Shown here: positions 27,201-60,377 of the stretch, piece by piece
Numbering within the stretch: position 1 is the stretch's first letter
How the letters are laid out: every line of letters starts with the position of its first letter
Source of the DNA: an uncultured Methanosarcinales archaeon
GTDB taxonomy: Archaea > Nanobdellota > Nanobdellia > Woesearchaeales > ARS49
Assembly (NCBI GenBank): GCA_964358315.1
Contig: CAYHOF010000002.1
Span: 10,738 to 74,737, forward strand
Reading direction: 5' to 3'
Length of the DNA stretch: 64,000 nucleotides
The notes under the pieces: model-generated
The model's input: only the letters and a program-made list of their open reading frames with translations
What the model was told of the DNA's origin: nothing
Databases searched by the model: none
Program-made: the position numbers and the translations under genes

Positions 27201-27663
27201 TTGGACAGGCACACTGGAAACAGTCAAGACCATTGGAGCACTTCTTGCCTTCGTTGTGCTTTTCTTCCAGTTAAGAGACTACTGGAAAAACCGAGTGGAC
27301 GTGATAATTCTTGTCAAACAACGAACGTTTGAAACTTACAACATGAAGGGATTTGATTCTGAACCGACTACGCGACTCATGATCGAAGCAGACATACGTA
27401 ACATTGGATTACAACCAACAACAATTGCTGAAGTAAAAATGTACTCCAAGGAAAAATCTTTAGACAATAAAAGACTCGATGTCAATGGCCACCAACAAGG
27501 AATTAGATTAGAGCCGAACGACAGAAGAATGGTGACTCTTAGCTATTCTTGGAGTCATGAAATGCCAAACAGTCTAAAGAAAATAGGCGTGAGGCTGCTA
27601 TTCAAAACAACTCACGAAAACAAGAAGAAAACTCTCAAATTAAAAAGAGATATAATATCTTAG
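27190..27663 (+). CDS. Hypothetical protein (157 aa, one N-terminal TM helix) encoded in a sharply low-GC (about 38%) segment.
   Basis: It has AT-rich codons, in contrast to the flanking genes at about 62% GC. It overlaps the hef stop by 11 nt. Confidence 0.5.
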   Translation: MAIDWTGTLETVKTIGALLAFVVLFFQLRDYWKNRVDVIILVKQRTFETYNMKGFDSEPTTRLMIEADIRNIGLQPTTIAEVKMYSKEKSLDNKRLDVNGHQQGIRLEPNDRRMVTLSYSWSHEMPNSLKKIGVRLLFKTTHENKKKTLKLKRDIIS

Positions 27664-28511
27664 AACGTCATCTTCTTCAGTCGGCTGATGCGTTCCTGCA
27701 TGGGCGGGTGCGTGCTGAGCAATGACTGAATCCCGTGGAGCGTGAAGGGGTTGACGATGAACATGCTCGACGTGGCGGGATTGCCGCGCATGGGATTGTG
27801 GCGTACGCCGTTCTCGATTTTATGTAACGCGTCGGCGAGCGAGTGGCCGTCCTTGATGAATGACGCGCCGCTCTGGTCGGCGAGGTATTCGCGGCTGCGT
27901 GAGATGGCCATCTGCAGCAGGAGCGCGATGATGGGCGTGATGATGCCGATGGCGAGGAGCGAGAGGATGTTCCCGCCGTCGCGGTCATCGCTGCCACCGC
28001 CGAAGAGCGCGCCAAAGCGTGCCATCATGGCGACGTAGGAGATGACGGCGGCCATGACGCTTGCGATCGTGGTGATGAGGATGTCGCGGTTCTTGATGTG
28101 TGCCATCTCGTGCGCGATGACGCCGCGCAATTCCTTCTCGGAGAGCAGCGCAAGGATACCTTCCGTGCATGCCACGACGCCGTTTTTCGGGTTACGGCCT
28201 GTCGCGAACGCGTTGGGCGTGGCATTGGGAACGATGTAGACCTTGGGGGTTGGTATGCCGGCGCTCGACGCGACGTCGCTGACGATGGCGTGGAGCCGTG
28301 CGTACTGTTTTTTGTCCGCTTCTTTGGCGCCGTACATGAACAGCACGATCTTCGCGGAGAAGAAGTAGGTGATGACGTTCATGAGCAGCGCGAACACGAG
28401 CGCGATGGTGAGGCCGGTCGAGCCGCCAAAGAATTGTCCGACGACAAGAGCAAGACCGGTGAGCAGGCCAAGCAGCAGTAATGTCTTGATATGATTCTCG
28501 ATCATGGACAA
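27660..28511 (-). CDS. htpX: Zinc metalloprotease HtpX (peptidase M48).
   Basis: It has HEMAHIKNRD and TM segments. Confidence 0.85.
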   Translation of the reverse strand: MSMIENHIKTLLLLGLLTGLALVVGQFFGGSTGLTIALVFALLMNVITYFFSAKIVLFMYGAKEADKKQYARLHAIVSDVASSAGIPTPKVYIVPNATPNAFATGRNPKNGVVACTEGILALLSEKELRGVIAHEMAHIKNRDILITTIASVMAAVISYVAMMARFGALFGGGSDDRDGGNILSLLAIGIITPIIALLLQMAISRSREYLADQSGASFIKDGHSLADALHKIENGVRHNPMRGNPATSSMFIVNPFTLHGIQSLLSTHPPMQERISRLKKMTF

Positions 28512-28531
28512 ACGAGTGTGAAAATGCGTTT

Positions 28532-28885
28532 TTATGCTTTGCGCATCACAAATGTGGAAAGCCCTTCGATGTGCCGCACGGGCGTCGTGAAGAGGAACTC
28601 ACGGAACGTGTTGTCCACGTGCACGCCATGGCGCATGAGGTGCGTGGCGAGTTCGTGGTAGAGCTTGCGGCCTTCCTCGTCGAGGTCGGTGAGCACCATG
28701 CAGTCCTTCGTGAGCGCGGCGACGCGCTCCACCACCTCGAAGAGCGCGCCTTCAAGAGGGATGACGTTCATGATCCCAAGGTCGGCAAGGGAACGCACGT
28801 CCTTCTTGCCTTCGACGATGATGAGTCCTTTGTACTGGCGCAAGCGTTCGAGGTGCGCCTGCAGTTCTTTCTCGTCTACTCTCAT
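28532..28885 (-). CDS. Small Toprim-domain protein (COG1658-like, RNase M5-like fold).
   Basis: The catalytic Toprim residues are present in LIIVEGKKD and VLTDLDEEG. The start is taken at ATG 28885..28883, with a TATA about 25 nt upstream. The longer TTG-start ORF is discounted. Confidence 0.6.
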   Translation of the reverse strand: MRVDEKELQAHLERLRQYKGLIIVEGKKDVRSLADLGIMNVIPLEGALFEVVERVAALTKDCMVLTDLDEEGRKLYHELATHLMRHGVHVDNTFREFLFTTPVRHIEGLSTFVMRKA

Positions 28886-28908
28886 CCACCTGACACCTCC
28901 GCACAAGC

Positions 28909-28916
28909 TATTTAAA
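28909..28916. promoter_or_regulatory. Palindromic TATA element (TATTTAAA) placed to drive both the Toprim gene on the minus strand and the primase gene on the plus strand.
   Basis: It lies 24-31 nt from the minus-strand start at 28885 and 34 nt from the plus-strand ATG at 28950. Confidence 0.45.
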
Positions 28917-28949
28917 GTTACGCGCAACACCATTTCTCGACGGGGGAAT

Positions 28950-30353
28950 ATGGTCATCCACATCAGCACATTGCTCAAGCACTACAAGCGTCCGGAAGTG
29001 CAGCGCGCGCTGGTCGACGCCTCGCAAGACAGGGAAGTGGGCGTGTTCTACGCAGGGAACAACACCTACGGCAAGCGTCCGGACGTGCTCAATTATCCGC
29101 GCGACGTCATGGAGTTCGTGACTAAAGGCGCGACGAGTTTCCACATCAGCGAGGAGCGCTGGAGCAATCCGCTTGGCATCGTGACTGGCGCGTCCCGTCG
29201 GGACCAGGACGACCTGCGCATCGGCTGGGACTTGATCATCGACATCGACTGTCCGTGGCTCGACTACAGCAAGGTCGCTGCGCACGTGATCGCGCAGAAA
29301 TTCCGCAGCATGGGGATCGGTTGTTTCACGATGAAGTTCTCAGGTAACCATGGCTTCCACATCGCAATACCATTCGAGGCGTTTCCTCCGACAGCGACGG
29401 TCGAGGGCAAGGAGCGTGACGTCAAGGACCTCTTCCCCGAGGGACCAAGAAAGATCGCGGCATACCTGCAAGATGAGATCCGCACACCGCTTGGCAGATT
29501 GCTCGTCGAGAAGTTCACGCTCGATGGCATCAAGAACACGACGGGAAAGACGCACGTCGAGCTTGTCAAGCAAGGACCGAAGGGCCCGTACGTCGATCCG
29601 TTCTCGCTGCTCGCCATCGACACTGTGCTCATCGCGTCACGCCATCTCGTGCGCGCGCCCTACAGCATGCACGACAAATCCGGCCTTGTGAGCATCCCGA
29701 TCGACCCGGACACGGTCATCGATTTTGACAAGAAGACGGCCGCGCCGGACGTGATAACGTTCGAGAGGAAATTCCTTGACAGATCGCGCGCGAAACCCAA
29801 TGAAGCACGTCTGATCTTCGACAACGCGTTCGCGCACAAGCTTCCTTCATCACCGTTGCGTGTGCTCAACGAGGACATCGAGAAGGCGATGAAACACCAA
29901 GAGGACACGATACCGACGGAGGCGCTCGCAGAAAGCATGTTCCCGCCCTGTATGCACAACATCAAGAAAGGCCTCAAGGATGGCAAGAAGCGCGCCATGT
30001 TCGCCGCCGTGAATTTTCTCGTGCTCGCAGGCTGGGAGTATGACAAGATCGAGGAATGGCTGCTGCAGTGGAACAAGAACAACCAGGAGGCGTTGCGCGA
30101 GGTGCACATCAAGGGCCACATCCGGTATCACAAGGCGAACAAGAAGAAAATGCCGCCGCCACGCTGCCGGCAGTACTATAAGGACCTCGGCGTGTGCCAA
30201 CCAGACAGCCTCTGTGACCGCATCAAGAACCCGATCCAGTACGCCAAGCGACGGGCGTTCATGGCCAGCATGGACCAGAAGCCGAAAAGGAAGAAGTCCA
30301 CCGACGAGAACGTGAAAGGCGAAGTGGAGATAGGGACGATGAAAGGCGACTAG
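28950..30353 (+). CDS. priS: DNA primase: a catalytic small subunit PriS fused to the Fe-S C-terminal domain of the large subunit (PriL-CTD).
   Basis: The PriS motifs are LIIDIDCPW and FSGNHGFHI. The C-terminal roughly 130 aa have the PriL-CTD signature FPPCM...LAGW...PPPRCRQYY...GVC...SLCDRIKNPIQY. The start is taken at ATG 28950, in frame with ORF 28665. Confidence 0.8.
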   Translation: MVIHISTLLKHYKRPEVQRALVDASQDREVGVFYAGNNTYGKRPDVLNYPRDVMEFVTKGATSFHISEERWSNPLGIVTGASRRDQDDLRIGWDLIIDIDCPWLDYSKVAAHVIAQKFRSMGIGCFTMKFSGNHGFHIAIPFEAFPPTATVEGKERDVKDLFPEGPRKIAAYLQDEIRTPLGRLLVEKFTLDGIKNTTGKTHVELVKQGPKGPYVDPFSLLAIDTVLIASRHLVRAPYSMHDKSGLVSIPIDPDTVIDFDKKTAAPDVITFERKFLDRSRAKPNEARLIFDNAFAHKLPSSPLRVLNEDIEKAMKHQEDTIPTEALAESMFPPCMHNIKKGLKDGKKRAMFAAVNFLVLAGWEYDKIEEWLLQWNKNNQEALREVHIKGHIRYHKANKKKMPPPRCRQYYKDLGVCQPDSLCDRIKNPIQYAKRRAFMASMDQKPKRKKSTDENVKGEVEIGTMKGD

Positions 30354-45375: not shown

Positions 45376-48300
45376 GTGACGAACAGACCATACTCGCCCA
45401 TGACCGACCCTGACCAGCTGGATGACGCGCCCGCCACCGAACAGACCGCAGAGGTGTTGCCCGCGCTCCCGATGGACGCCGCGGACATGATCCGCAAGTT
45501 CAAGGAATTCTTCGAACAATACTATTATGGCGAGCTGCTCGAGGCGTTGCGCAAGGGCGAGCGCCACATGGGCATCGACTTCCAGAAGCTCGTGCGCTTC
45601 GACCCGCAGCTTGGCGACCTCGTGCTCGACCAGCCCCAAGACGCGCTCAAGGCAGGCGAGCTTGCCGTGCGCGAGTTCGACGCGAAGGTCAAGCAGTTCA
45701 CCATTCGTCTGAGCAACCTACCTGGCAGCAGCTTCCTCATGTTGCGTCACGTGCGCAGCAGGCACTTGGGCAAGATCATGTTCACCGAAGGGATTGTGCG
45801 CCAGAAAAGCGACGTGCGACCGCAGGTCACGGAGGCGACGTTCGAGTGCCCGAGCTGCGGCAACCGCCTCAGCGTGCTGCAGCTCGACACCACGTTCAAG
45901 GAGCCCACGCGCTGCAGTTGCGGACGCAAGGGGAAGTTCAAGCTCACCGGCAAAGAGCTCGTGGACGCGCAAGGCATCGTGCTCGAGGAGGCCGCGGAAC
46001 AGCTCGAGGGCGGCGAGCAGCCAAAGCGCATGAACATCTTTCTCAAGAACGACCTCGTGAGCCCGATCACCGAAAAAAGAACGAACCCCGGCTCGAAGAT
46101 CCGCATCACCGGCGTCATCAAGGAAGTGCCGATCACGACCAAGTCCGGCGGGACGAGCACGCGTTTCGACCTGCTCATCGAGGCCAACCACGTGCTGCCG
46201 GTCGAGGAGGACTTCTCCGAGATCACGATCAGCAAGGAGGAGATGCAGAAGATCCTCGACCTCAAGAACGACCCACATATCGAGAAAAAGCTCATCGACA
46301 GCGTGGCGCCCAACATCTACGGCCACGAAAAGATCAAAGAAGCGCTCGTCCTCCAGCTCATGGGCGGCGTGCGCAAGACCCGTGACCAGGGCGCGGGCGC
46401 GACGACAAGAGGCGACATCCACATCCTGCTCATCGGCGACCCTGGTTCGGGCAAGTCGCAGATGCTCAAACGCATCAGCAAAGTGGCGTTGCGCGGCCGT
46501 TTCATCTCGGGCAAAGGCGTCTCGGGCGCGGGATTGACCGCGAGCGTCGTCAAGGACGAATTCCTCTCGGGCTGGAGCCTTGAGGCAGGCGCGCTCGTGC
46601 TCTCCAACAAAGGCATCTGTTGCATCGACGAACTCGACAAGATGACGGACGAAGACCGCGCGGCTATGCATGAGGCACTGGAAGGTCAAAGCTATCATCC
46701 TGACACTGAACTGCTGCTCGCGGATGGCAGTCGGACAACGATTGGAAGTTTTGTCGACGACGTGATGCGACAATGCACTGTCGTACAAGGGACCGATTGT
46801 GAATTCGCGTTCCCAAAAGACACCACGATCCTCACCACTGACTTCCAGCGCGTTGCACCTGCACGCATCGCACGCGTGAGCCGTCATCCGGCGCCCACGA
46901 CATTTTTCCGCATCACGTTCTCGAATGGACGCGCCATCACCGTCACGCCCGAACATCCTCTGTTCGTGTACACGCACGGAGAGGTCAGCGTGACGCCCGC
47001 ATGCATGGCCACGGTCGGCACCATGGTGCCGGCGCCCAGACGACTGCCCATCGAAGGACGGGCGGTCGCACTCACGCAACCCGCCAAACAGTATCATCAT
47101 GCCAAACCGCACGTGTTACCGACGCACCTGAACGCCGACCTTGCACGCTTGCTCGGCTACGTCGTCACTGAAGGTCATTGTTATGCGAACCCGACCAACC
47201 GCACGTACGAGATCGGCGTGAGCAATACTGACACGAGAATAATCAATGAGGTCGCCGCTCTGTTCAGGAACATTTTCGCGACCGACGTCATCGTCACAAC
47301 GCAAGCAGCGGACAAGCGAGAAAAAGCGACGCGCGATTTATACACCGTCAGGTGCTGCTCACGTCCTATCCATGATTTTTTCGCGCTGAATTTCCCGGAA
47401 CTCATGACGAAAGCGCCGCGTAAACGCGCTCCCTCCGGCATCATGCGGGCGACGGAGGATTGTGTCCGTGCGTTCTTGCAGGGAGCCTTCCGTGGAGATG
47501 GCACGGTCAGCAGTGATGACGTGGGGTTTGCGACAGCCTCACGAAAACTGGCGGAAGACTACCAGGACCTGATGCTGCGGCTGGGAACGCCATCCATCAT
47601 CCGCACCGAACACCGCAACGCCGCGACGTACCATAAGACCATCGTCACAGGCACGGTGGCCGAAAAAACGCACTGGGCCGATTCCATCGTCGTTGAGGAT
47701 GATCCGCGACATCATCGCATCCGCGCCCTTCTTCGACGTGCTGCGCAGAAGAACAACCAACGCGATCCGGTTCCTTCCGAGATCGCCGCGCTCACGCATA
47801 AGGCGCTTCTCGCGCTGAAAATGGCGGATGGCAATATCTCGAGCACGCTCGCCCGCGGCCACGCGCCCTCACGTCAGACCATCACGACCTACGTCGACAA
47901 GATAGATGGCCGACTCGATCTGATTGCAAGATCAGAAGGACGCACTGCCCGCAGACTCGCCAACGTGCAGGTCAGCTCGCTTGCGGAGGGAATGGGACGA
48001 TCGAGCGGTCACGTCTATAACGCCGAACTGGACCACCATCAGGAACACGCGACATACACCACCGTGCTCGACCGACAGGTCGCCCGGAAGATCGGCACTG
48101 TCCAAGAATTGATGGCTCCTGTCAAGCGTTTCCTCGATGCGGATCTCAGAGTGCACACCATCACGAATGTCGAGAGGATCGACAACCCGGGGATCGCGTT
48201 GGTCTATGACGTCACGGTAGAGCCGCACCACAGCTTCATCAGTCAAGGGATGGTCTTGCACAACACGGTGACGATCAGCAAGGCCAACATCCAGGCGACG

Positions 48301-49068
48301 TTGCGTTGCGAGACCACCGTGCTCGCTGCCGCGAACCCGAAGCTGGGGCGTTTCGACCCGTATGAGATCATCGCGAAACAGATCGACCTGCCGCCGACGC
48401 TCATCAACCGTTTCGACCTCATCTTCCCGATCAAGGACCTGCCTGACCCTGTCAAGGACAACAACATGGCGAGCTTCATCCTCGAGATGCACCGCACCGA
48501 GGCAGGCATGAACGCGACCATCGACACTCCGCTGTTCCGCAAGTTCGTCGCGTACGCGAAACTCCACATCAGGCCGCACCTGAGCGAGGAGGCGATCGCC
48601 GAACTCAAGGACTACTACATCCGCATGCGCGGCAGCAGCTCGAGGGAGAGCGGCGTCGTCAAGAGCATCCCGATCTCGGCGCGTCAGCTTGAAGGTCTCG
48701 TGCGTCTGAGCGAGGCGCACGCACGCATGCGCCTCTCCGAGATCGTCGAGCGCAAGGACGCGCGCAAGGCCATAGAACTCCTCGATTACTGCCTGCGCCA
48801 GATCGCGCTCGACGAGGAGACCGGACAGATCGACATCGACCGCATCGGTTCGGACACGTCGTCGAGCCAACGCAACAAGATCCTCCAGGTCAAGGAGATC
48901 ATCAAGACGCTCGAGAACAAGGTCGGCAAGGTCATCCCGATCGACGACGTCGAGCAGGAAGCCGCCCAGAAGGGAGTCACGGACGCGGAGCTCGACGAGA
49001 TCATCCAGAAGCTCAAGAAGAGCGGCGACGTCTTCGAGCCAAAGAGCGGCTACATCTCACGGATCTGA
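45376..49068 (+). CDS. mcm: MCM replicative helicase interrupted by an in-frame intein. The extein is about 705 aa.
   Basis: The N-terminal OB/Zn domain has CPSCGN...CSCG. Walker A is GDPGSGKSQ. Walker B is CIDELDKM followed by the intein, and the TVTISKANIQATL motif resumes after it. The start is GTG 45376 or ATG 45400. Confidence 0.9.
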   Translation: MTNRPYSPMTDPDQLDDAPATEQTAEVLPALPMDAADMIRKFKEFFEQYYYGELLEALRKGERHMGIDFQKLVRFDPQLGDLVLDQPQDALKAGELAVREFDAKVKQFTIRLSNLPGSSFLMLRHVRSRHLGKIMFTEGIVRQKSDVRPQVTEATFECPSCGNRLSVLQLDTTFKEPTRCSCGRKGKFKLTGKELVDAQGIVLEEAAEQLEGGEQPKRMNIFLKNDLVSPITEKRTNPGSKIRITGVIKEVPITTKSGGTSTRFDLLIEANHVLPVEEDFSEITISKEEMQKILDLKNDPHIEKKLIDSVAPNIYGHEKIKEALVLQLMGGVRKTRDQGAGATTRGDIHILLIGDPGSGKSQMLKRISKVALRGRFISGKGVSGAGLTASVVKDEFLSGWSLEAGALVLSNKGICCIDELDKMTDEDRAAMHEALEGQSYHPDTELLLADGSRTTIGSFVDDVMRQCTVVQGTDCEFAFPKDTTILTTDFQRVAPARIARVSRHPAPTTFFRITFSNGRAITVTPEHPLFVYTHGEVSVTPACMATVGTMVPAPRRLPIEGRAVALTQPAKQYHHAKPHVLPTHLNADLARLLGYVVTEGHCYANPTNRTYEIGVSNTDTRIINEVAALFRNIFATDVIVTTQAADKREKATRDLYTVRCCSRPIHDFFALNFPELMTKAPRKRAPSGIMRATEDCVRAFLQGAFRGDGTVSSDDVGFATASRKLAEDYQDLMLRLGTPSIIRTEHRNAATYHKTIVTGTVAEKTHWADSIVVEDDPRHHRIRALLRRAAQKNNQRDPVPSEIAALTHKALLALKMADGNISSTLARGHAPSRQTITTYVDKIDGRLDLIARSEGRTARRLANVQVSSLAEGMGRSSGHVYNAELDHHQEHATYTTVLDRQVARKIGTVQELMAPVKRFLDADLRVHTITNVERIDNPGIALVYDVTVEPHHSFISQGMVLHNTVTISKANIQATLRCETTVLAAANPKLGRFDPYEIIAKQIDLPPTLINRFDLIFPIKDLPDPVKDNNMASFILEMHRTEAGMNATIDTPLFRKFVAYAKLHIRPHLSEEAIAELKDYYIRMRGSSSRESGVVKSIPISARQLEGLVRLSEAHARMRLSEIVERKDARKAIELLDYCLRQIALDEETGQIDIDRIGSDTSSSQRNKILQVKEIIKTLENKVGKVIPIDDVEQEAAQKGVTDAELDEIIQKLKKSGDVFEPKSGYISRI
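46690..48264 (+). mobile_element. Intein (525 aa) with a LAGLIDADG homing-endonuclease domain, inserted in the MCM Walker B/sensor-1 region.
   Basis: It begins with Ser after ...HEALEGQ and ends in HN, followed by Thr at +1. Block A is SYHPDTELLLADG, and the LAGLIDADG-like motifs are LLGYVVTEG and FLQGAFRGDG. The flanking extein matches the MCM consensus. Confidence 0.8.
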
Positions 49069-49412: not shown

Positions 49413-50804
49413 CTACGCGCACGCGCCTGCCAAGTAGGACGACACGCTGAGTGTCGAGCACGCGAAGCATGCGTTCTTGTACGTGAATTGGTTGTCGGCG
49501 CACACGGGATCGTTGTTGTCGGCGCAGCTGGACGGGCGGGGTTCTGCGCACAAGGTCGGTTGTGGTCCGCTTGGTTGCGGAGGCGCTTGCGCCGCTGCCG
49601 CGTCAAGGTATGCTTCGTCGACGGCGCGTTGCTGCTCGAGCTGGCGCAGGTTGCGCAACGAATTGCACGAGCCGCGCAAGTACCTGTTGCCGATCCTCTC
49701 GCACACGTCGAACTCGTTCTTGCTGAGCGCGAAATCGATGAGGCATTGATCGCGCGTGATGTCCTCGACGATCTGCGCGCACAGGTCGCTCTTGCCTGCG
49801 CTTGAGGCGACGACAGAGAAGCAGCCGTCGCGGTCGGTGGCTTTGGGCAACGAACCGCACAATGCGACCGCACGGTCCGCATCGTCCGGTGCGACCGTAC
49901 GCGCCTCCTCCACGACCTGGTCGGCATTCGGGCCTGAAGGACCCGCGCCGCAGTCCTGCGGGCAGGTCACGGACGTCTCGCCGGCGTTGCAGATGCCGTT
50001 CCCGCAGATGGCAGGCTTGTCGGTGTGCACACACTGGTTCTCGATGCAGGCGTCGTCCGTGTTGAAATCATAATCATTGCAGCCGCCCGGACATTCCGCG
50101 ATCGGCGGCGCGGTGGTGATGGGACCTGTGGGCTGCGTCGGCGGGACGCCCGGCGACACGACTTCAGGGCATGACGCGCACTGGCCCCCGCAATCCACGC
50201 CGGTCTCGGCCTGGTTCTGGATGCCATCCGAACATGACGCCTTGGCCGCGAGGACGCTGATCGAGAACGTGGTCGTGGCTTCCTTGCCTTTGGCGTCGAC
50301 CGCACTGACCTCCATGACATACGTGCCTGGCGGGAGTTTCTGGGGGATGTCAAGAGGCACGCTGCGTTCTTGCTTGCCTTTGCCTGGCAGGAGTTGCTGC
50401 ACAGGGAACGCGACAGGGTTGCCGGTCTGGTCTTTGAGCGTGTGCGTCACGGTGACCGTCCCGCTTGACGTCACCACGTCGTTGATCGTAACAGAATCGC
50501 CTGCACGGACCTCGACTTGTGCGGGCGCCGCGCGCAGTGTCAGTTGGGCGGTGGGTGCGGCGAAGAAGAAAGCGACAAGGATGCCGCCGATGCTCAGACC
50601 AAGCACTGCGCCCGCGATCCACAACCACGGAGGCGGACCTGCCGTTGACGCGGAGAGGACCGTCTGCTGGTGCAGTTGGCGGAATGCATCCTCGATGTCA
50701 TACGCGGTGTAGCCGCCGCGCAGAAGATATGCGCGGACCTGGTCTTCACGGTAGCCGTTGCGGAGCAGAGACTGTATATACGCGAGCAACTGCGGCGACG
50801 CCAT
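49413..50804 (-). CDS. Type II membrane protein with an Ig-like domain, several cysteine-rich modules and a C-terminal Kazal-type inhibitor domain.
   Basis: The start is taken at ATG 50804, with the TATA TTTATAAA 26 nt upstream. It has a TM helix (WLWIAGAVLGLSIGGILVAFFF). The Cys-rich repeats are CGGQCASCP and CGNGICNAGETSVTCPQDCG. The C-terminus (CAEPRPSSCADNNDPVCADNQFTYKNACFAC...GAC) fits the Kazal pattern. Confidence 0.6.
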   Translation of the reverse strand: MASPQLLAYIQSLLRNGYREDQVRAYLLRGGYTAYDIEDAFRQLHQQTVLSASTAGPPPWLWIAGAVLGLSIGGILVAFFFAAPTAQLTLRAAPAQVEVRAGDSVTINDVVTSSGTVTVTHTLKDQTGNPVAFPVQQLLPGKGKQERSVPLDIPQKLPPGTYVMEVSAVDAKGKEATTTFSISVLAAKASCSDGIQNQAETGVDCGGQCASCPEVVSPGVPPTQPTGPITTAPPIAECPGGCNDYDFNTDDACIENQCVHTDKPAICGNGICNAGETSVTCPQDCGAGPSGPNADQVVEEARTVAPDDADRAVALCGSLPKATDRDGCFSVVASSAGKSDLCAQIVEDITRDQCLIDFALSKNEFDVCERIGNRYLRGSCNSLRNLRQLEQQRAVDEAYLDAAAAQAPPQPSGPQPTLCAEPRPSSCADNNDPVCADNQFTYKNACFACSTLSVSSYLAGACA

Positions 50805-50826
50805 CGTCCTACCATCGGTCCGGGGA

Positions 50827-50834
50827 TTTATAAA
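50827..50834. promoter_or_regulatory. Palindromic TATA (TTTATAAA) between the divergent genes at 50804 (minus) and 50889 (plus).
   Basis: Spacing read directly from the sequence. Confidence 0.45.
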
Positions 50835-50888
50835 CTTGTCCACCCTTGTGGCTAAAAGCATAAATAGGAACCCGGGCGCATCCGTGGC

Positions 50889-51458
50889 ATGGTGGAAGGG
50901 GGACGTCTTGTAGCGCAAAAGGCGCGCGTAGCGGACATCGTTGCGGGCAATGTCCAGACCGCGGAAGGCGCCGCGCGCGTGAACATCATGGGATGTGTGG
51001 TCGCCGTGAACCCTGAAGAGCCGCCGTCGTTCATGATGGATGACACGAGCGCGCTCGTGCTCGTGCGCCAGTTCGACAAGCGCGCCGCGCCGCAAATAGG
51101 TTCTGTCGTGTGCGTTATCGGAAGGGTCCGCGACCATCAAGGCGAGCGCTACATCGCGAGCGAGATCGTCAGGCCGCTTGACACAGCATGGTTGGCGGTG
51201 CGGTCATTGGAGCTCGCGCGGGCATCGTCGTTCGTCACGCCGTCGCTTGTCTCTGCGGAGGAACGCGTCGAGGATGACGCGGAGGATGCCGACGCATCGA
51301 TGCTCGCCGTCATACGTGACCTGGATGAAGGCACAGGCGCTTCGCTTGATGATATCGTCTCGCACACGGGTCCGGACGCGGAGAAGACCGTCCAATTCCT
51401 GCTCAGGCGCGGCGACGTGTTCGAAGTCAGCCCTGGCAGGATCAAGATTCTCGAGTGA
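50889..51458 (+). CDS. OB-fold plus winged-helix protein, RPA32/Stn1-like. It is a putative ssDNA-binding or RPA-associated protein.
   Basis: It has the OB-like core VNIMGCVVAV...VVCVIGRVRDHQGERYIASEIV, an acidic linker and a C-terminal wH (ASLDDIVSHTG...VQFLLRRGDVFEV). Confidence 0.45.
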   Translation: MVEGGRLVAQKARVADIVAGNVQTAEGAARVNIMGCVVAVNPEEPPSFMMDDTSALVLVRQFDKRAAPQIGSVVCVIGRVRDHQGERYIASEIVRPLDTAWLAVRSLELARASSFVTPSLVSAEERVEDDAEDADASMLAVIRDLDEGTGASLDDIVSHTGPDAEKTVQFLLRRGDVFEVSPGRIKILE

Positions 51459-53091: not shown

Positions 53092-53609
53092 TGAGCGTAC
53101 GGGCCTTGCGGGTTTCTGGTCGGCACAATAATGCATGATCGCTATGCGGTGGTCTTTTGGCATGATGATGCGATCTTGCTTGTTGTAGACGCGCAGCAAC
53201 GACGCGATCTGGGAGGGATCGTGCCATTCAGGCGCGCGATGGTCGCGGATCGGGAACTGTGCACCCTCGACTGGCATCGATGCGATGGAGAGCGCGACGT
53301 AACGCTTGGACGCGGCCAGGTCGATGAAGTGCGCCATCTCGAGCCCGGCAGGATGCACCGTGGTGTGTGGGCCCAGCAACCGCTCAAGCCACGCGTCAAG
53401 AGTGACGTCTTTGTCGGTCCGGATCGTCGGCAGTTCGAGGATGCCGCCCGAGCGTATCCTGTTCATGCGATACCGTGCCTCCGGTGTCGTGCAGACGAAG
53501 GGATCGTGATGATGCCATTCATAGCGCCGCACGAGCAAGACCTCGTGGTGCGGCACGCCCTCCCGCAGGCCGGTGTAGTTCGTGATGACGACGGGGATGC
53601 CGCTCACCC
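53071..53609 (-). CDS. Hypothetical protein (about 179 aa), apparently translationally coupled to the PolD large subunit.
   Basis: The GTG start overlaps the TGA stop of the upstream PolD gene in a GGTGAG arrangement. It has good GC3 usage and no recognised family. Only the part of ORF 53071..53808 downstream of the PolD stop was kept. Confidence 0.35.
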
Positions 53610-56600
53610 GAACCACCGTCCGAGCCCTTCCTGTTTCTCCTTGTCCTTGCCGAACACGCTTTCGACGTGACATTTGAGCAGATGGACGGTCTGTTTGAGA
53701 TACGGCGAAAGGTCGTACGCCTCGGCGAGGCTGATGGTGGGCTCGAGGTACTTTATCACGCTGCCTTCCGAGATGGTGAAGAGCAGCTTGCCTTTGCACT
53801 TGGTGCATTTGCCAAGCAACGGCGGCCTACGGAATTTCTCGTTGCAGTCGACGCAACGGAATTCCTGACTCGAGAATTTACGCAGGTTGCCGCGTGTGTC
53901 CTTGATGAAGTGTTTTTCTATCACGAGGCGCGCGACGTCCGATGTGTCCACCGCGCGGATCTTGAACGCGAGGTCCATCTGGCCCTTGAGCTTGTCCTCC
54001 ATGCTCGGGATCATCTTGTAGGCGCTGCACAGCACGCCGTTGTTGATATCGGTGGTGTCGTGCGTGAAGCCGAACCCTTCGTACTGTTCTGGTTTGTCGA
54101 GCACGTGCTTGATCTGCAGGATCTTGACTTCCTTTGGCATCTTGTACTCGAGCGCGGCCTCATAGAGCTCGAGCGGATAGCTCCATGCGATGTCCACGTC
54201 GAAGGCCATGTCGTCGACCTCGGAGGGCGTGAGCACGCTCGTGAGCACGAGCGGCGCGTCCATGGTGCCGCCACGGCTCGTGGGCAGGAACTCCTTGGAG
54301 AAATTCAGCATGCCATCGAGCAGCAACATGAAACCCATCTCGTCGCCGTCGCAGTCGCGACGGCATGCGCAGTGGAAGTACGGATGCGCGAGGAACCCTT
54401 GCGTGCGCGAGAACCCGATGATACGACCCACCATGCCCGCGCTCGTGTGCGGCGCGAGCCCGATGATGAGGTGGCCCACAAGATCGTAGGGCGTCTGCAG
54501 GTTGTAATAGCGGGGCAGGCCGTACATGAGTTCGAGCTGGTCGTCGATGAACTTGGTGACGCGATAGAGCACCGCATCGCTGGGCTCGTGCGGTTTGGCC
54601 TCGAGACAGCAGGGGATGACGATGTCCTGCGGCCGCAGCTCGATCACCTGGTCGTCGCGCTCGATCGGCGCGCCTTTGATGTCGTGCGTGTAGCCGAGTT
54701 CGAGCAGGCGCTCGACCGGCGTGCGGATCTCGCGCGGCCGGAAGTGCGTGAGCGCGACCTCGCTGCAATCATAACGGATGGTGCCATCCTTGTTGACATG
54801 CACGTCGTGCTTTGCGCGCAGGACGGACTTGAAGATGTGCTCCGGGACATGAGTGTCGTTCATCATGCCGCGCACGCCCTTGATCTGGTCCGGGAACGTC
54901 GCCATGTGCAGCCGCTTGACGGTGTTCTCGAACATGCGTTTGATGTCGATCTTTCGGCGTTTCGATGACTCGGTGTCAGGCGTCTTGGACTCGGCGTCCG
55001 CCTGGCGGGTGCGCGAGTAGTAGCGTTGACGGGTGCGGGCGCCGCATTGGTCGCACACGCGGTAGATGCAATCGAGCTTGCACACGTCGCAGTACATGAG
55101 CGGGAAGTCGCCGGTAACGCCTCCCTTCTCGAACGCGGCCTGTAACGAGCGGAGACGCCCGCCTTCGTCACCGACAGGACACAGTCCGTGCGGGCTGCCG
55201 GTCATCTTGCGCATCTTCGCTTTCTCAGGACGCCCCATGCGCGAACCGATATAGATGCCGCTCTTGTCGCGCAAGCGGACAGAGGAAAGCTTGTTCACGA
55301 GCACAAGGACGTTCTCCTGGGGGTTCGCCGAGACGAGCGCCGACCCCTTGAGCGCGTCAGGCGCCGCCATCGCGCCGAGCGAGAGCGCGAGCGCGCCTGC
55401 GACCGGCGCATCGATGACGACGAATTCGTTGTTGACGACGGTGTGCGGGACGCCGAGCAGTTCGAGCGCGCGCTTGGGTTCGGCGTCGATGGGCAGCACG
55501 ATCTTGTCGACGAGACCGTCGTGGTCTGTCCACGTGCCTTTCGAGAGCCAGTCACAGAGCAACGAGAACGCGCCTGGCTCGATGTCTGCCCAGTGGTATG
55601 TGTAGAACGGGTGTAATGGCGTGCTCGATCCTTTGGCGAGCGCGAGCGCCTCTGCGAGGGTGGGCTTCGCCAGCATCGGCTCCGCAAGCAGTTCCTTGAT
55701 GCGGGACGCGCCGAGCCCGCACACGTCCGCGGCCTTCTCCATGTCGAGTGAGCCTGTCGTCGTGACGATGCCTTTCTCGACCTCCTTGGCCCACCATTCT
55801 TCGCAGTAGCCTGCGGGCACGAGCGGGTGGGCGCGGTTGACGAAGTCGCCATACGGGATCAGCACGTCGCCGAGGAAGAGTATCTCGCGCACGCGTGGCG
55901 CCATCGCCTTCGCGAGCTTCTCGTTGTCGAGCAGCAGCACGGATCCGTCGTCGATCTTGACGATCGGCCCTTCGATCATGTCGCAGGGCGTGAATGCCGC
56001 GCCTTTGCCCGGCCTCTCGACCTTGAGCTGCGTGCCGGTCGCGATGTAATTGTTGAGGATGTGCATTGTCGCAGGATGGATGCTCTGGCCGCTCAGGCCC
56101 GATGCGCGCGATCTGCCGTAGCGCAAGCGCCATCCTCCTTTGCGCAAGGGGTGCCCGAGGACCGGACGACCTGCGACGAGATCCGCGATGTAGGTGAAGT
56201 CGGGAAGGATCTTGGGACCGCCTTCTTTTTTCGTCGCGCCTTGCGCCTTCATCTTCTTCTGGATGTTCAGGAATTCCTCCATGAAATCCCAGTGCTCCAT
56301 GCCGAAGTCCTTGCCCCACTTGCCGAGCTGGTTCCAGAGCTTGGGGCCTTTGAGCGGGATGCAGCTGCTGAGGATGAGGCAGTAACCGCTGCGGATCTTG
56401 TTGGTCGGGATGCGCGGCAGGTCCTTGTAATTGCTCACGTCCATCTTCTCGCTGGGCTCGCCCGCGACTTCGACAGGGAGGTTCTTCATGAGGAATTCGA
56501 CCTCCGGCTCGCTCGGGTGGTATTGGAGGTTCGTGACGCGGTCGTGGTAGTCCTGCATCTCGACCGACGCGCGCTTGATCTCCTCAGGGGTGGCATCGTA

Positions 56601-57146
56601 CGTGTCGATGCCCATCTTCTTGCGGACGTAGTCCGCGATGATGACGCTCACCGCGGCGGCCGTGCCCCCTGCGTTGCGGATCGGGCCAGCATAGCTGATG
56701 GAGAGGTAGTCGCCGCGGCCGTCGATGCGTTTCTTGAGTTCGATGGAGACGATGCCGTCCAATGGCGAGCTCACGACGCCCACCGTGACGTAGGCGAACC
56801 CTGTCCTGATGCCGATGTCGATGGCCTCCAGTTTCGTCTCGAACGTGCAGAACTTCTGGGCCGCGACCTCCTCGGCGATCTTGAGCGCGACGCGCCAGTC
56901 GAGCGCGCCGAACTGTCTCTCGAGCTCGATGATGCGCTGCACGACACCTGTGCCGACGATCTGCGGCGCGAGCACCGATATGAGACCCTCGACGCGCTCG
57001 GCCATGTTCTCGGCGAGCTTGATCTCGACGTCGTCGGACGGATCGAACCCTGCCGCGCGCGCACGCTTGCCGATGGCGACCATTGCCATCGAGGCCTTCT
57101 TGAGCGTCTCGAAATACCGCTGCATCATCGGGCTCGCGGCGGTCAT
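53604..57146 (-). CDS. dp2: DNA polymerase II (PolD) large catalytic subunit DP2.
   Basis: The 1180 aa protein has the DP2 pattern and a C-terminal zinc finger (CDVCKLDC...CDQCG). It contains no intein. Confidence 0.9.
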   Translation of the reverse strand: MTAASPMMQRYFETLKKASMAMVAIGKRARAAGFDPSDDVEIKLAENMAERVEGLISVLAPQIVGTGVVQRIIELERQFGALDWRVALKIAEEVAAQKFCTFETKLEAIDIGIRTGFAYVTVGVVSSPLDGIVSIELKKRIDGRGDYLSISYAGPIRNAGGTAAAVSVIIADYVRKKMGIDTYDATPEEIKRASVEMQDYHDRVTNLQYHPSEPEVEFLMKNLPVEVAGEPSEKMDVSNYKDLPRIPTNKIRSGYCLILSSCIPLKGPKLWNQLGKWGKDFGMEHWDFMEEFLNIQKKMKAQGATKKEGGPKILPDFTYIADLVAGRPVLGHPLRKGGWRLRYGRSRASGLSGQSIHPATMHILNNYIATGTQLKVERPGKGAAFTPCDMIEGPIVKIDDGSVLLLDNEKLAKAMAPRVREILFLGDVLIPYGDFVNRAHPLVPAGYCEEWWAKEVEKGIVTTTGSLDMEKAADVCGLGASRIKELLAEPMLAKPTLAEALALAKGSSTPLHPFYTYHWADIEPGAFSLLCDWLSKGTWTDHDGLVDKIVLPIDAEPKRALELLGVPHTVVNNEFVVIDAPVAGALALSLGAMAAPDALKGSALVSANPQENVLVLVNKLSSVRLRDKSGIYIGSRMGRPEKAKMRKMTGSPHGLCPVGDEGGRLRSLQAAFEKGGVTGDFPLMYCDVCKLDCIYRVCDQCGARTRQRYYSRTRQADAESKTPDTESSKRRKIDIKRMFENTVKRLHMATFPDQIKGVRGMMNDTHVPEHIFKSVLRAKHDVHVNKDGTIRYDCSEVALTHFRPREIRTPVERLLELGYTHDIKGAPIERDDQVIELRPQDIVIPCCLEAKPHEPSDAVLYRVTKFIDDQLELMYGLPRYYNLQTPYDLVGHLIIGLAPHTSAGMVGRIIGFSRTQGFLAHPYFHCACRRDCDGDEMGFMLLLDGMLNFSKEFLPTSRGGTMDAPLVLTSVLTPSEVDDMAFDVDIAWSYPLELYEAALEYKMPKEVKILQIKHVLDKPEQYEGFGFTHDTTDINNGVLCSAYKMIPSMEDKLKGQMDLAFKIRAVDTSDVARLVIEKHFIKDTRGNLRKFSSQEFRCVDCNEKFRRPPLLGKCTKCKGKLLFTISEGSVIKYLEPTISLAEAYDLSPYLKQTVHLLKCHVESVFGKDKEKQEGLGRWFG

Positions 57147-58612
57147 GCTGCATCACCGCTGCTGAAGTTGAGCACGCTGACCTCGCGAGTCTGGAGGTTG
57201 ACGATGGGCACGCGGCACGGGTCGGGGTTGTGCCCGACTTTCTCCTGGAATTTGGTGCGTGCCTGGAAACAGCTGCCGGAGATGATGGTCACGCCACGGT
57301 AATTGAGGAACGACGACTTGTGGATGTGGCCGGAGAAGAAGAAATCCGGGGCGGATTCGATGACGAGCGCGTCGCGCTGCGGGTCGACGATGAACTGCGT
57401 GCTGTCATAGCTTGGCGCGAGGTGTCGGCGCTGCAGGAGGAACCGCATGATGAGGCTGATGCGCGCCGAGACGTCCTTGCCGCTCTCGCGGATGGAGTCG
57501 ACGCGGTCGCCGTAATAATCGTAGCTGTAGCCGTGGTAGAGCAGCACGTCGAACCCCGGGAAGGTGTCCGTGCGCCCTACCACGACGACCGCAGGGTTGC
57601 TCACGAACGTGATGTTGGGCAGATCATGGAGCACGGGGAGGTACTCGCGCGGGATCTTCGGTTGCGGCTCGGCGAGCCTCACCGCGTCGTGGTTGCCCGG
57701 GCTGATGATGACGCGGATGTGCGCGGGGATCTCCTTGATGAAACGCTCGAACTCCTTGTACTGCTCGTTGATGTCGGGAAGGGTGAGTTCCTTGTTCTGC
57801 GCGGGATAGATGCCGACGCCATCCACCGCGTCGCCGACGATGACGACATACCTGACCTTGCGCGCCATCGCGCGCTGGCGTTCGGTGCCGGTCTCCCCCC
57901 TGAGCCACCGTATGCACTTGCCGAACTCCTCGGGAAGGAAGTTGTTCGACCCGACGTGCGGGTCGGAGAGCACCACAAGATAGTCCTCGGTCGGGGATTT
58001 CTTGAGTTCGTGGGTGAGCGGAACGTCCGGGTGGATGATGTCGCTCACGAAGATGGCGCCGCCCGCATTCTGGCCCAGCACGCCTATCACTTCGTCGAGC
58101 ACGAGGTCTTTGGCTTTCTTGAACATCTGCTCGCGGGACTTGGGGAAGATGAGTTTGACCGACCCGGTGAGGTCCTCGAGGACCACGATGAGGTTGCCGT
58201 TCTTGGTCTCTTGCTTGTCCGCGACAAAGCCGATGAGCGCGACCTTCTCGCGTTCGCCGTTCGGGGACAACCTGCTGATGGACGTCACGGCCGCGAGTTC
58301 TTGGCGTTCGCTCAGGATGCGGGCGAGCGCGCGGAAGCGCGCTTTGAAGTATGCGACGAAGTCGTCGACCGTGACCTTGCGGCCCGCCACGTCGTAGTCG
58401 CGGACGATAACGACGCCGGGCGCTTCGGTCCGCGGCACGCTGCCTATCATCTGGTGGATGTCCTGGCCTGGTTGCGGTGACGCGCTCATGTCATAGAGGG
58501 TGTCGAGGAATCGCGGATCGTTCATCCGTTGCAGGAGGTCGGACGTGACGAGCACGTTGTTCTGTAACAGGAACGTGACCACGTTCTTCTTCTTGTCGAG
58601 TGCGTCAGCCAT
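57143..58612 (-). CDS. dp1: DNA polymerase II (PolD) small subunit DP1, a metallophosphoesterase-fold exonuclease.
   Basis: It has a calcineurin-like phosphoesterase domain (GDAVDG...GNHD) and an N-terminal OB. The start was chosen at the ATG overlapping the orc1 stop. Confidence 0.9.
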   Translation of the reverse strand: MADALDKKKNVVTFLLQNNVLVTSDLLQRMNDPRFLDTLYDMSASPQPGQDIHQMIGSVPRTEAPGVVIVRDYDVAGRKVTVDDFVAYFKARFRALARILSERQELAAVTSISRLSPNGEREKVALIGFVADKQETKNGNLIVVLEDLTGSVKLIFPKSREQMFKKAKDLVLDEVIGVLGQNAGGAIFVSDIIHPDVPLTHELKKSPTEDYLVVLSDPHVGSNNFLPEEFGKCIRWLRGETGTERQRAMARKVRYVVIVGDAVDGVGIYPAQNKELTLPDINEQYKEFERFIKEIPAHIRVIISPGNHDAVRLAEPQPKIPREYLPVLHDLPNITFVSNPAVVVVGRTDTFPGFDVLLYHGYSYDYYGDRVDSIRESGKDVSARISLIMRFLLQRRHLAPSYDSTQFIVDPQRDALVIESAPDFFFSGHIHKSSFLNYRGVTIISGSCFQARTKFQEKVGHNPDPCRVPIVNLQTREVSVLNFSSGDAA

Positions 58613-59819
58613 GGATCGAGAGCGCCTCCATGACGATGGCATGCACTTGGGCGAGTGTGGCCGCCGGCAGCGCGATGCCTATCTCCCGCGTCCGTCCGTA
58701 CCTGCCCTTGCTGATGACCTTGCTTTGGATGAGGCCGAGCATGTCGAATTCCTGGATGATATCCGACACCCGCCGTTGGGTCAGCGGACGCAGGCTGGCC
58801 TTGCCGCACAATGCCTGGTACTTTTCGTAGATCTCGCCGGTGAAGACCGCTTGTTGGCGTTCGGCGCACGCGGTGAGGACCGCGCACAAGGTGGCCTGAT
58901 GTTGTTTTGGTTGCGTGCGGACGCAGTCGAGAACGCGTTCGTTCTCCATCGAGGACTCCGCCACGTCGAGGTATGCCATGCCCACTGTCTCGTTATGTTC
59001 GCGTTCGCAGAGTTCGGCGGCGGTGCGCAACAGCATAATGGCCCGTCGGGCGTCGCCGTGGTCTTGCGCCGCGAGCGCCGCGCATTTCTGGACCACGCCG
59101 TCCTCGAGGACGCCCGGCGCGAACGCGAGCGAGGCACGCTGTTTGAGTATGTCGAGCAGTTGCACGGCGTTGTAGCGCGGGAACAACAACTCCTCCTCGG
59201 AGAGCGAACTGCGCACGCGCGGGTCAAGCGTGTCCTTGAACGTGAGGTTGTTCGAGACGCCGACGAGCGTGATACGACTATTGTGCAGGTGTTCGTTGAT
59301 GCGCAGAAGGTTGTAGAGGAGTTGGTCGTCCGCTTTTTCGACCAGTGCGTCGATCTCGTCGAGCACGAGGAGCATGGTGCACTTCTTGGCGTCGAGTTCC
59401 TCGTAGAACGTCTTGTAGACTTCGTCGGTGGGAAGGCCTGTCGCAGGCAGTGGCCGGCCGAGTTCTTTGGCGAGCTGGGCGACGAGGCGGTACTCTGTGT
59501 CCGCGGTGCGTTTGAGCTTGCAGTTGATGTACGTGACGATGACAGGAAGGGCGAGTTTCTCCGCGGCTTGTTTGATCTGCCGTGTCGTGAACAGCGTGAC
59601 GAGCGTCTTGCCCGTGCCAGGATAACCGTAGATGAAGAGGTTGTTGGATTTTTGGCCGCGGAGGATCGGCGCGAGGACGTTCGCCACCTGTGTGATCTGC
59701 TCGTCGCGATGGAGGATGTCCTCTGGCTGGAAATCCGTCTGCAATGCTTGTTTGTTGGCGAACAGCGATTTATGTGATAGGTACTGCTCGAAAAAATTTG
59801 CTAGTTTCCTCTCTTCCAC
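58605..59819 (-). CDS. orc1: Orc1/Cdc6 replication initiator.
   Basis: It has AAA+ Walker A (GYPGTGKT), Walker B (LVLDEID) and a C-terminal wH. It lies directly adjacent to the AT-rich oriC. Confidence 0.9.
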   Translation of the reverse strand: MEERKLANFFEQYLSHKSLFANKQALQTDFQPEDILHRDEQITQVANVLAPILRGQKSNNLFIYGYPGTGKTLVTLFTTRQIKQAAEKLALPVIVTYINCKLKRTADTEYRLVAQLAKELGRPLPATGLPTDEVYKTFYEELDAKKCTMLLVLDEIDALVEKADDQLLYNLLRINEHLHNSRITLVGVSNNLTFKDTLDPRVRSSLSEEELLFPRYNAVQLLDILKQRASLAFAPGVLEDGVVQKCAALAAQDHGDARRAIMLLRTAAELCEREHNETVGMAYLDVAESSMENERVLDCVRTQPKQHQATLCAVLTACAERQQAVFTGEIYEKYQALCGKASLRPLTQRRVSDIIQEFDMLGLIQSKVISKGRYGRTREIGIALPAATLAQVHAIVMEALSIHG

Positions 59820-59917
59820 CGTGACGTCCCCTTTTGTGTGGTTCCATCTGCAATGCAGGTTATTTAAGTTTTTGCAGACTGTATTTGTTGTATCGAAGGA
59901 TCAGTAATGATAATACT

Positions 59918-59947
59918 CCACAGTCACCCCTTGATTTCCTCTGGAAC
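59918..59947 (-). promoter_or_regulatory. Origin recognition box ORB1, a dyad plus G-string.
   Basis: The reverse complement reads ATTGTTCCAGAGGAAATCAAGGGGTGACTGTGG, which resembles the archaeal ORB consensus (TTCCAnnGGAAA plus GGGG). Confidence 0.5.
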
Positions 59948-59949
59948 AA

Positions 59950-60225
59950 TATGATGATAGTTCAAAATTCGTGTTTTATGTTATTTTCTAAAATATATTA
60001 ACAAATACATTATTTATATTATATATTTTGAATCACAACTATTTCGTGTTTTTTCATAGTGTAATATTATATTTTTATATAAAAAATAATAATATATATA
60101 ATATAATATATATAATATAAAATAATAAAAACAAAATAATGTTTGAATAATATAATTAAACAAAAATTTCATACGTACACGAAAAACAAAGGACAAAAAT
60201 CATTCACAACTTCATCAATACTATT
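59950..60225. other. AT-rich duplex unwinding element of the predicted oriC, containing A/T simple repeats.
   Basis: The region is about 15-20% GC within a roughly 60% GC genome. It is flanked by inverted ORB elements and lies next to orc1. Confidence 0.55.
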
Positions 60226-60226
60226 T

Positions 60227-60250
60227 TTCCATACGAAATCAAGGGGTGGG
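60227..60250 (+). promoter_or_regulatory. Origin recognition box ORB2, inverted relative to ORB1.
   Basis: TTCCATACGAAATCAAGGGGTGGG shares the core GAAATCAAGGGGTG with ORB1. Confidence 0.5.
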
Positions 60251-60343
60251 AAGGATTCACGTCGGAGTATATTTGTTGCTACTTAATGAGGATGACATTA
60301 AAGGAAGATTTATATACTAGTTATATCTCTTCCGTAGTAACAA

Positions 60344-60359
60344 GTGGAGTTATCTCCAC
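60344..60359 (+). promoter_or_regulatory. Perfect palindrome GTGGAGTTATCTCCAC between the TATA at 60309-60316 and the trmB start codon, a candidate operator.
   Basis: The dyad was read directly. It overlaps the expected TSS. Confidence 0.35.
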
Positions 60360-60377
60360 ACATGAGGTCCACCCACA

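Follow-up and report, generated by a model that had tools for sequence, protein, structure and literature searches.

A probable class 1 intein with a nested LAGLIDADG endonuclease at the MCM-c site of an archaeal mcm gene

Inteins cluster in the ATPase motifs of replisome proteins, a pattern for which Novikova et al. argue a function (PMC4760082). In the haloarchaeal MCM helicase four insertion sites have been recorded, at positions 335, 362, 401 and 415 of the Hfx. volcanii protein (MacNeill survey, PMC3972481), and position 401 has been designated MCM-d in the Gogarten/Gophna paper, where co-conversion tracts are also described for MCM inteins (PMC10643990). Here we analyse a 525-aa insert in the mcm gene carried by a 64,000-nucleotide stretch of contig CAYHOF010000002.1 (assembly GCA_964358315.1), the whole of which is referred to as the window. 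The insert is very probably a class 1 intein of canonical type, with a two-motif LAGLIDADG homing endonuclease nested inside it along with a helical accessory domain, and is located at the CDC21/MCM-c site.

The closest described systems are the CDC21/MCM-c inteins of Halobellus, Natronomonas, Halorientalis, Methanoperedens, Thermoplasmata, Woesearchaeota and others, which begin with Ser1 in the sequence 'SYHP'. The insert shares with them an identical site (HEA[LM]E.Q followed by [TS][IV][ST][IV][SA]KA), the N-terminus SYHPD, the C-terminus VLHN, a length of about 520-530 aa and a four-part architecture made up of HINT-N, LAGLIDADG core, helical accessory domain and HINT-C. It differs in that identity to them is only 31-56%, its host is rich in GC and the nearest sampled relatives of that host are free of the intein. 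The solved archaeal inteins TliVMA (7qss) and PI-TkoII/PI-PkoII (2cw7) have the same domain order, but interrupt the P-loop of the V-ATPase A subunit and DNA polymerase B, respectively, start with Cys1, show 16-17% identity to the insert and have a shorter accessory region than its roughly 160 aa. PhoCDC21-1 (6rpq) and PabCDC21-1 (6rpp) have the MCM/Cdc21 host in common with it; they are, however, mini-inteins without an endonuclease that occupy the P-loop site MCM-a and begin with Cys1 (PMC6801210). Finally, the free-standing archaeal homing endonuclease I-DmoI resembles the insert in its monomeric two-motif core fold, whereas it is intron-encoded, lacks a splicing domain and is only about 16% identical.

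The insert, its site and its domains

A single long open reading frame (ORF) at 45376..49068 on the plus strand, free of stop codons throughout in the ORF list and its translation, encodes 1230 aa and is an archaeal MCM replicative helicase (mcm) precursor interrupted by an intein. Pfam detected MCM_N, MCM_OB, the MCM P-loop domain, MCM_lid and the archaeal winged helix MCM_WH_arc in this frame, with the P-loop domain cut by the insert into two stretches, the first at aa 290-439. The start codon is uncertain, the candidates being GTG at 45376 and ATG at 45400 or 45472. Without the insert, the protein shares 82% identity with three intein-free MCMs (P0007-P0009, 679-695 aa) and 62-66% with MCMs named Candidatus Woesearchaeota; no identical MCM or intein sequence was present in the protein collections searched.

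Comparison with these orthologs fixes the exact insertion point, since they read HEALEGQ/TVTISKANI without a break (a slash marks the junction here and below). In the window HEALEGQ occupies aa 432-438 and ends at nt 46689, while TVTISKANI starts at aa 964, nt 48265. Deletion of aa 439-963 restores HEALEGQ/TVTISKANIQATLRCETTVLAAANPKLGRF, the same as in P0007 and P0008, and the uninterrupted sequence of the intein-free orthologs is AAMHEALEGQ/TVTISKANIQATLRCETTVLAAANPKLGRF. An empty site was also found at the DNA level in one related locus (L001), where 48 of 60 bases around the junction are identical and the translation is the same; the reconstructed empty mcm site of the window is GCACTGGAAGGTCAA/ACGGTGACGATCAGC. 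The first-pass annotation, made from the sequence alone, had placed a 525-aa in-frame insertion at 46690-48264 between these two motifs, and its coordinates and length proved exact on translation, as did the insertion point when aligned to the intein-free MCMs that it had proposed as a check. Its further statement that the insert splits the Walker-B/sensor region held in so far as Walker B and sensor-1 flank the insert, but Walker B itself is intact, lying 17 residues upstream, with the sensor-1 sequence AAANP downstream. The intein thus follows Walker B rather than interrupting it, and the presensor-1 hairpin comes immediately after it.

This position was used to name the site. The +1 Thr lies 18 residues past DELD, which equals position 415 of the Hfx. 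volcanii MCM, where DELD is at 394-397. With MCM-d at position 401, the site is by elimination the known CDC21/MCM-c, the letter c being drawn from three papers and not from InBase itself. The insertion follows the Q of HEAxExQ and ends right before the presensor-1 hairpin begins, as at other MCM-c sites.

The ends of the insert carry the residues needed for splicing: Ser1 at the start, His-Asn as the last two residues and Thr as the +1 residue. Block B contains T-x-x-H as T86-P-E-H89. Judged against the gathering scores, Pfam Intein_splicing matched above its cut-off (51.8 bits against 35.8, E=1e-13), as did LAGLIDADG_3, and both NCBIfam intein models exceeded theirs, intein_Nterm at 44.9 bits (cut-off 24.5, covering intein aa 3-93) and intein_Cterm at 18.9 bits (cut-off 15.6). 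Sequence matches among solved structures were to the PhoCDC21-1 intein 6rpq (E=1.8e-10, the best for the splicing domain), TliVMA and PI-PkoII. An AlphaFold2 (AF2) model of the insert, with a mean predicted local distance difference test score (pLDDT) of 80.6, resolved four parts: an N-terminal splicing segment rich in beta structure, a core in which the alpha-beta-beta-alpha-beta-beta-alpha unit occurs twice, helices at about 323-483 and, at the C-terminus, a short beta segment. When this model was compared with the PDB using Foldseek, the TliVMA intein 7qss ranked first (E=2.4e-22; template modelling (TM) score 0.72, normalised to the target), followed by PI-PkoII, PI-PfuI and PI-SceI; I-DmoI was also matched.

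The endonuclease core contains two LAGLIDADG motifs. Motif 1 is LARLLGYVVTEGH (intein aa 151-163), with LLGYVVTEG and the acidic residue E161, and motif 2 is FLQGAFRGDGTV (intein aa 262-273), with LQGAFRGDG and the acidic residue D270. Pfam LAGLIDADG_3 covers the core in two stretches (73.8 bits, E=1.4e-20). The AF2 secondary structure shows the alpha-beta-beta-alpha-beta-beta-alpha fold twice, between intein residues 149 and 319, and Foldseek gave TM scores of 0.70-0.75 for this core, normalised to I-DmoI.

Between the endonuclease and HINT-C lies the accessory domain (ACD), a position that it also takes in other endonuclease-bearing inteins; in TliVMA and PI-TkoII it is helix-turn-helix-like (PMC8966425). 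In the AF2 model of the insert three short helices occupy intein aa 418-447. At the homologous position the relatives P0002, P0128 and P0135 gave weak matches to HTH_3, HTH_23 or CI-repressor models, none of them clearly above the Pfam cut-offs, the best being HTH_3 in P0002 at 23.1 bits against a cut-off of 23. We therefore propose a helix-turn-helix (HTH) in the accessory domain of the window's intein only tentatively. The coordinates of all segments are collected in Table 1.

Table 1. Coordinates in the window of the mcm exteins, the intein and their parts, with the evidence for each.
Feature	Position (nt)	Strand	Evidence and details
MCM N-extein, aa 1-438	45376..46689	+	N-terminal domain, OB fold, AAA+ through Walker A/B, end at HEALEGQ
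Walker A, GDPGSGKS	46435-46458	+	motif search in N-extein
Walker B, IDELD, aa 417-421	46624-46638	+	motif search in N-extein
Last 10 N-extein codons, low third-position GC	46660..46689	+	4/10 against extein background 0.87; lowest of 696 ten-codon extein windows
Whole intein, 525 aa, Ser1-Asn525 (ORF aa 439-963)	46690..48264	+	translation, Pfam, NCBIfam, ortholog comparison
HINT-N segment, intein aa 1-120	46690..47049	+	block A SYHPDTELLLADG (Ser1 nucleophile), block B GRAITVTPEHPLFV (T86, H89); NCBIfam, 6rpq match, AF2 beta-rich
LAGLIDADG homing-endonuclease core, intein aa ~145-322	47122..47655	+	Pfam LAGLIDADG_3 in two stretches; AF2; Foldseek
Helical accessory domain (ACD), intein aa ~323-484	47656..48141	+	AF2 helices 323-483; putative HTH at aa ~418-447, RRLANVQVSSLAEGMGRSSGHVYNAEL
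HINT-C segment, intein aa 485-525	48142..48264	+	block F ALVYDVTVEPHHSFIS (D507), block G QGMVLHN (H524, N525); NCBIfam intein_Cterm
MCM C-extein	48265..49068	+	Thr+1 TVTISKANIQATL (presensor-1 hairpin), sensor-1 AAANP, arginine-finger region, AAA-lid, winged helix, stop codon; Pfam

Relatives, distribution and codon usage

A word-indexed protein search with the intein returned only six matches, the best at 36% identity, and all six were MCMs with an intein at the same site starting SYHP. The impression of a rare element that this gave was an artefact of sensitivity and was overturned by an exhaustive HMMER search and a genome scan. Against 1.84 billion cluster representatives, HMMER found 2107 matches at E<=0.001 and 170 at E<=1e-30. 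The best 150 were re-mapped and nearly all are MCMs in which the match begins right after a HEAxExQ-type flank and ends with LHN followed by T/S-[IV]-[ST]-[IV]-[AS]-K; a handful are P-loop (MCM-a) inteins instead. Full-length matches (1-525) to same-site inteins had E values from 1e-176 to 1e-39.

Conservation was assessed in a set of 85 sequences, comprising 84 full-length relatives (490-548 aa) and the window intein. Residue 1 is Ser in 80 of the 85 and Cys in the other five, T86 is present in 84, and H89, D507, L523, H524 and N525 are invariant; the +1 residue in the relatives is T in 62 and S in 22. Each of the two LAGLIDADG acidic residues is retained by 81 of the 85 sequences. The window intein has the consensus residue at every conserved splicing and endonuclease position, and its length of 525 aa is the family mode. 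A family profile hidden Markov model (HMM), built from these relatives and including the window intein itself, covers the latter from end to end with 563 bits. The same HMM, run against all six-frame ORFs of at least 80 aa in the window, matched the mcm intein only, so no further intein of this family was detected there.

In the GTDB species-genome collection a relative of the intein is encoded by at least 269 stretches, which are spread over most archaeal phyla. The best 80 of these 269 come from Woesearchaeota, Nanoarchaeia, Altarchaeum, Iainarchaeum, Methanosarcinales/Methanoperedens, Methanocella, Thermoplasmata, many Halobacteria, Nitrososphaeria, Desulfurococcales/Pyrodictiaceae and Asgard archaea, and the closest intein among them, at 56% identity, belongs to a groundwater Woesearchaeota metagenome-assembled genome (MAG; L003). 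The MCM-c intein is one of the most widespread and common intein alleles in Archaea, and the window intein, to judge by sequence, is a divergent (<=56% identity) new member of this well-known family.

Some of the relatives deserve separate mention. Two Woesearchaeota-type MCMs, P0100 and P0127, carry another intein directly before Walker B (GLC/C...HN/CIDE[LM]DKM), and P0127 has both this and the MCM-c intein; in the window MCM the pre-Walker B site is empty (KGIC/CIDELDKM). An MCM-c intein was also found on a contig labelled as a 'Bdellovibrionales bacterium' MAG (L015, CAXPJQ010000052.1), and one MCM protein (P0034) is named 'Candidatus Binatia bacterium'. Both are probably archaeal contigs mis-binned into bacterial MAGs.

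Taken together, the exact insertion, the presence of blocks A, B, F and G, the profile matches, the fold, the large allelic family and the absence from the closest orthologs lead to the assignment of the insert as an intein, and nothing among the results obtained contradicts it. What the first-pass annotation had claimed about its nature was borne out in all matters of substance. The canonical termini are all in place (Ser1, H524-N525 and Thr+1), the Pfam and NCBIfam models that it had suggested as a check recognise the insert, and the lack of blocks A, B, F and G, which it had named as grounds for rejection, is not what was observed, all four being present and in agreement with the family consensus. 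The element is full-length with two LAGLIDADG-like motifs, as had been stated, both catalytic acidic residues being intact and the fold resembling I-DmoI; the description of it as 'potentially mobile' is an inference from the sequence. The proposed hotspot in replication proteins is a recognised one, CDC21/MCM-c, where homologous inteins occur in hundreds of archaeal genomes.

Three results, on the other side, speak less favourably for this interpretation. The accessory region of the window's own intein matched no Pfam domain. The AF2 model drew on only six aligned sequences, and its confidence is low in the last residues of the intein, with pLDDT below 50 for residues 519-525. The third concerns codon usage: third-position GC (GC3) falls from 0.87 in the extein to 0.68 in the intein, changing abruptly at both junctions (Fisher p=2e-15), and the intein likewise has a lower GC3 than the C-extein in 46 of 49 related loci (taken from among L003-L082), with a mean difference of -0.105 and a difference of -0.19 or below in nine loci. 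The dip had been considered as a sign of recent horizontal acquisition, and this was rejected because the direction is the same in 46 of the 49 control loci. Being family-wide, it cannot date the acquisition of the intein. The lower GC3 is instead a difference in codon usage, common to the family, between a selfish insert and the essential gene that hosts it. In the Woesearchaeota-like related loci intein GC3 ranges from 0.28 to 0.68, and the genome of the window is unusually rich in GC for the group.

As mentioned above, the closest MCM orthologs, at 82% identity, do not have the intein. The nearest inteins (52-56% identity) reside in other Woesearchaeota, where the exteins are only about 60% identical. 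This pattern of presence and absence fits either gain by homing or loss in the relatives. The low-GC3 stretch that ends the N-extein may bear on the first of these. One other ten-codon window is equally low, and it overlaps 46660..46689, shifted by one codon across the junction; CAT for His and CAA for Gln at the end of the N-extein recur in intein-bearing Woesearchaeota alleles. The stretch could conceivably be a short co-conversion tract or a homing-site footprint. That the intein arrived recently by homing from another Woesearchaeon, leaving a co-conversion scar of about ten codons at 46660-46689, is an improbable reading.

Splicing, homing and alternative explanations

The insert splits the AAA+ core, separating Walker B from the presensor-1 hairpin and sensor-1, so splicing would be needed for helicase function. 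Since the catalytic residues are intact and mcm is the sole such gene seen in the window, autocatalytic excision and ligation of the exteins would be expected. In the proposed pathway the 1230-aa MCM precursor would be translated, and Ser1 would undergo an N-O acyl shift helped by T86 and H89 of block B. The hydroxyl of Thr+1 would then attack the ester in a transesterification, after which Asn525 would cyclise with the aid of H524 and the block F residue D507, freeing the intein. An O-N shift would give an MCM of about 705 aa with a normal peptide bond, and the helicase would become active only at this point. The free intein, or the precursor, would act as a monomeric LAGLIDADG endonuclease, probably aided by the accessory domain, and would cleave intein-less mcm alleles across GAAGGxCAA/ACGGTGAC. 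Recombinational repair of the cut allele would copy the intein into it, which constitutes homing. We infer all three activities of the window intein, that is splicing, DNA cleavage and homing, from its sequence.

A different outcome would be that the intein splices while its endonuclease is inactive or has no remaining targets, in which case it would be passed on vertically as a resident element in the course of reduction to a mini-intein. Decay of the endonuclease is the expected last stage of the homing cycle, and reduced forms do exist at the same site within the family (P0004 with 247 aa and P0005 with 170 aa). The endonuclease core is only 36% identical to the relatives and the accessory domain 18%, and the absolute GC3 of the intein follows that of the host across the family, from 0.20 to 0.92, indicating long residence in each lineage. 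Against this, however, E161, D270 and the glycines of both LAGLIDADG motifs are intact in the window intein, its length has not fallen below the family mode, and its closest MCM orthologs are without the intein, so that empty target sites exist in related populations. We consider the loss of endonuclease function or targets a possibility to be kept in mind, though a less likely one than a splicing intein that has kept an intact endonuclease.

It could also be envisaged that the intein has taken on the role of a conditional splicing switch, gating MCM activity and replication by a stress or redox signal. The suggestion draws only on analogy, as conditional splicing has been reported for RadA and DnaB inteins (PMC4513877, PMC6195587, PMC7360933), and on the clustering of inteins in replisome ATPase motifs. 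No regulation-specific feature was seen in the window intein, however; its Ser1/Thr+1 chemistry lacks the cysteine pair of the known redox traps, and its patchy presence among close relatives together with a retained endonuclease fit a selfish element. Such a role is thus highly improbable, and we think it equally doubtful that a switch of this kind might keep the one replicative helicase of a DPANN archaeon with a small genome inactive and allow splicing only once a cellular or host-derived signal is received.

That the insert is never excised, being an ordinary lineage-specific MCM domain or an artefact of assembly or annotation, can be set aside as next to impossible, for no support for it was found among our results and a non-splicing domain is excluded by motifs, fold and homology: all four splicing blocks are there, HINT and LAGLIDADG folds are both predicted and matched, the insert breaks the AAA+ core between Walker B and sensor-1 and is missing from orthologs 82% identical, and homologous inserts occupy the same site in distant phyla. 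We thus retain the reading of the insert as a class 1 intein bearing an intact LAGLIDADG endonuclease.

Genomic setting and significance

The genes around mcm encode SecY, TBP, the PolD subunits DP1 and DP2, Orc1/Cdc6, Hef and the primase large subunit, and this neighbourhood is an archaeal chromosome. The GC content is 58.5%, with a third-position GC of 0.8-0.9 in many genes of the window. The host would be a Woesearchaeota-like DPANN archaeon of unusually high GC, to judge from the 62-66% identity of its extein to named Woesearchaeota MCMs and from the Woesearchaeota MAGs that carry the closest inteins.

Replication and repair genes cluster at 53604..59819 on the minus strand and at 24954..30353 on the plus strand, and include those for Orc1/Cdc6, PolD DP1/DP2, a Hef-like helicase-ERCC4 nuclease and the primase large subunit. 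DP2 is a frequent intein host in Archaea; the DP2 of the window, at 1179 aa, is free of inteins, and its exact sequence was absent from the protein collections searched. Upstream of orc1/cdc6 (58605..59819, minus strand), the intergenic region 59820-60365 contains a 27-nt inverted repeat, CACCCCTTGATTTCCTCTGGAACAATA, at 59925-59951 and 60222-60248 (89% complementary). The repeat, spanning 59925-60248, flanks about 270 nt with 13-25% GC in a genome of 58.5% GC. In its sequence the region looks like an archaeal replication origin, with an origin recognition box (ORB)-like pair around an unwinding element; this putative origin adjoins orc1/cdc6 and the PolD DP1-DP2 genes and lies about 11 kb from mcm.

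Directly downstream of mcm, a 575-aa ORF at 49413..51140 on the minus strand gave no Pfam match at E<=1e-5. Its product contains a hydrophobic segment, is rich in Cys in the C-terminal half and may be secreted or a surface protein. Two antisense ORFs lie within the mcm and intein sequences, both on the minus strand, at 45718..47112 (464 aa) and 47932..48870 (312 aa). They are probably spurious, as such frames are expected opposite a gene with a third-position GC of 0.7-0.9.

The correct annotation of this locus is that of an intein-containing precursor, giving a mature MCM of about 705 aa and a 525-aa intein, and not a 1230-aa helicase or a 'LAGLIDADG endonuclease'. The intein is a divergent, high-GC DPANN addition to the very large MCM-c family, and beyond annotation it is of little consequence. 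Its endonuclease adds to the candidate meganucleases, and its target, of about 20-30 bp, is predictable. Together with the 82%-identical intein-free relatives, the locus provides a natural pair of occupied and empty sites for studies of homing in uncultured Woesearchaeota.

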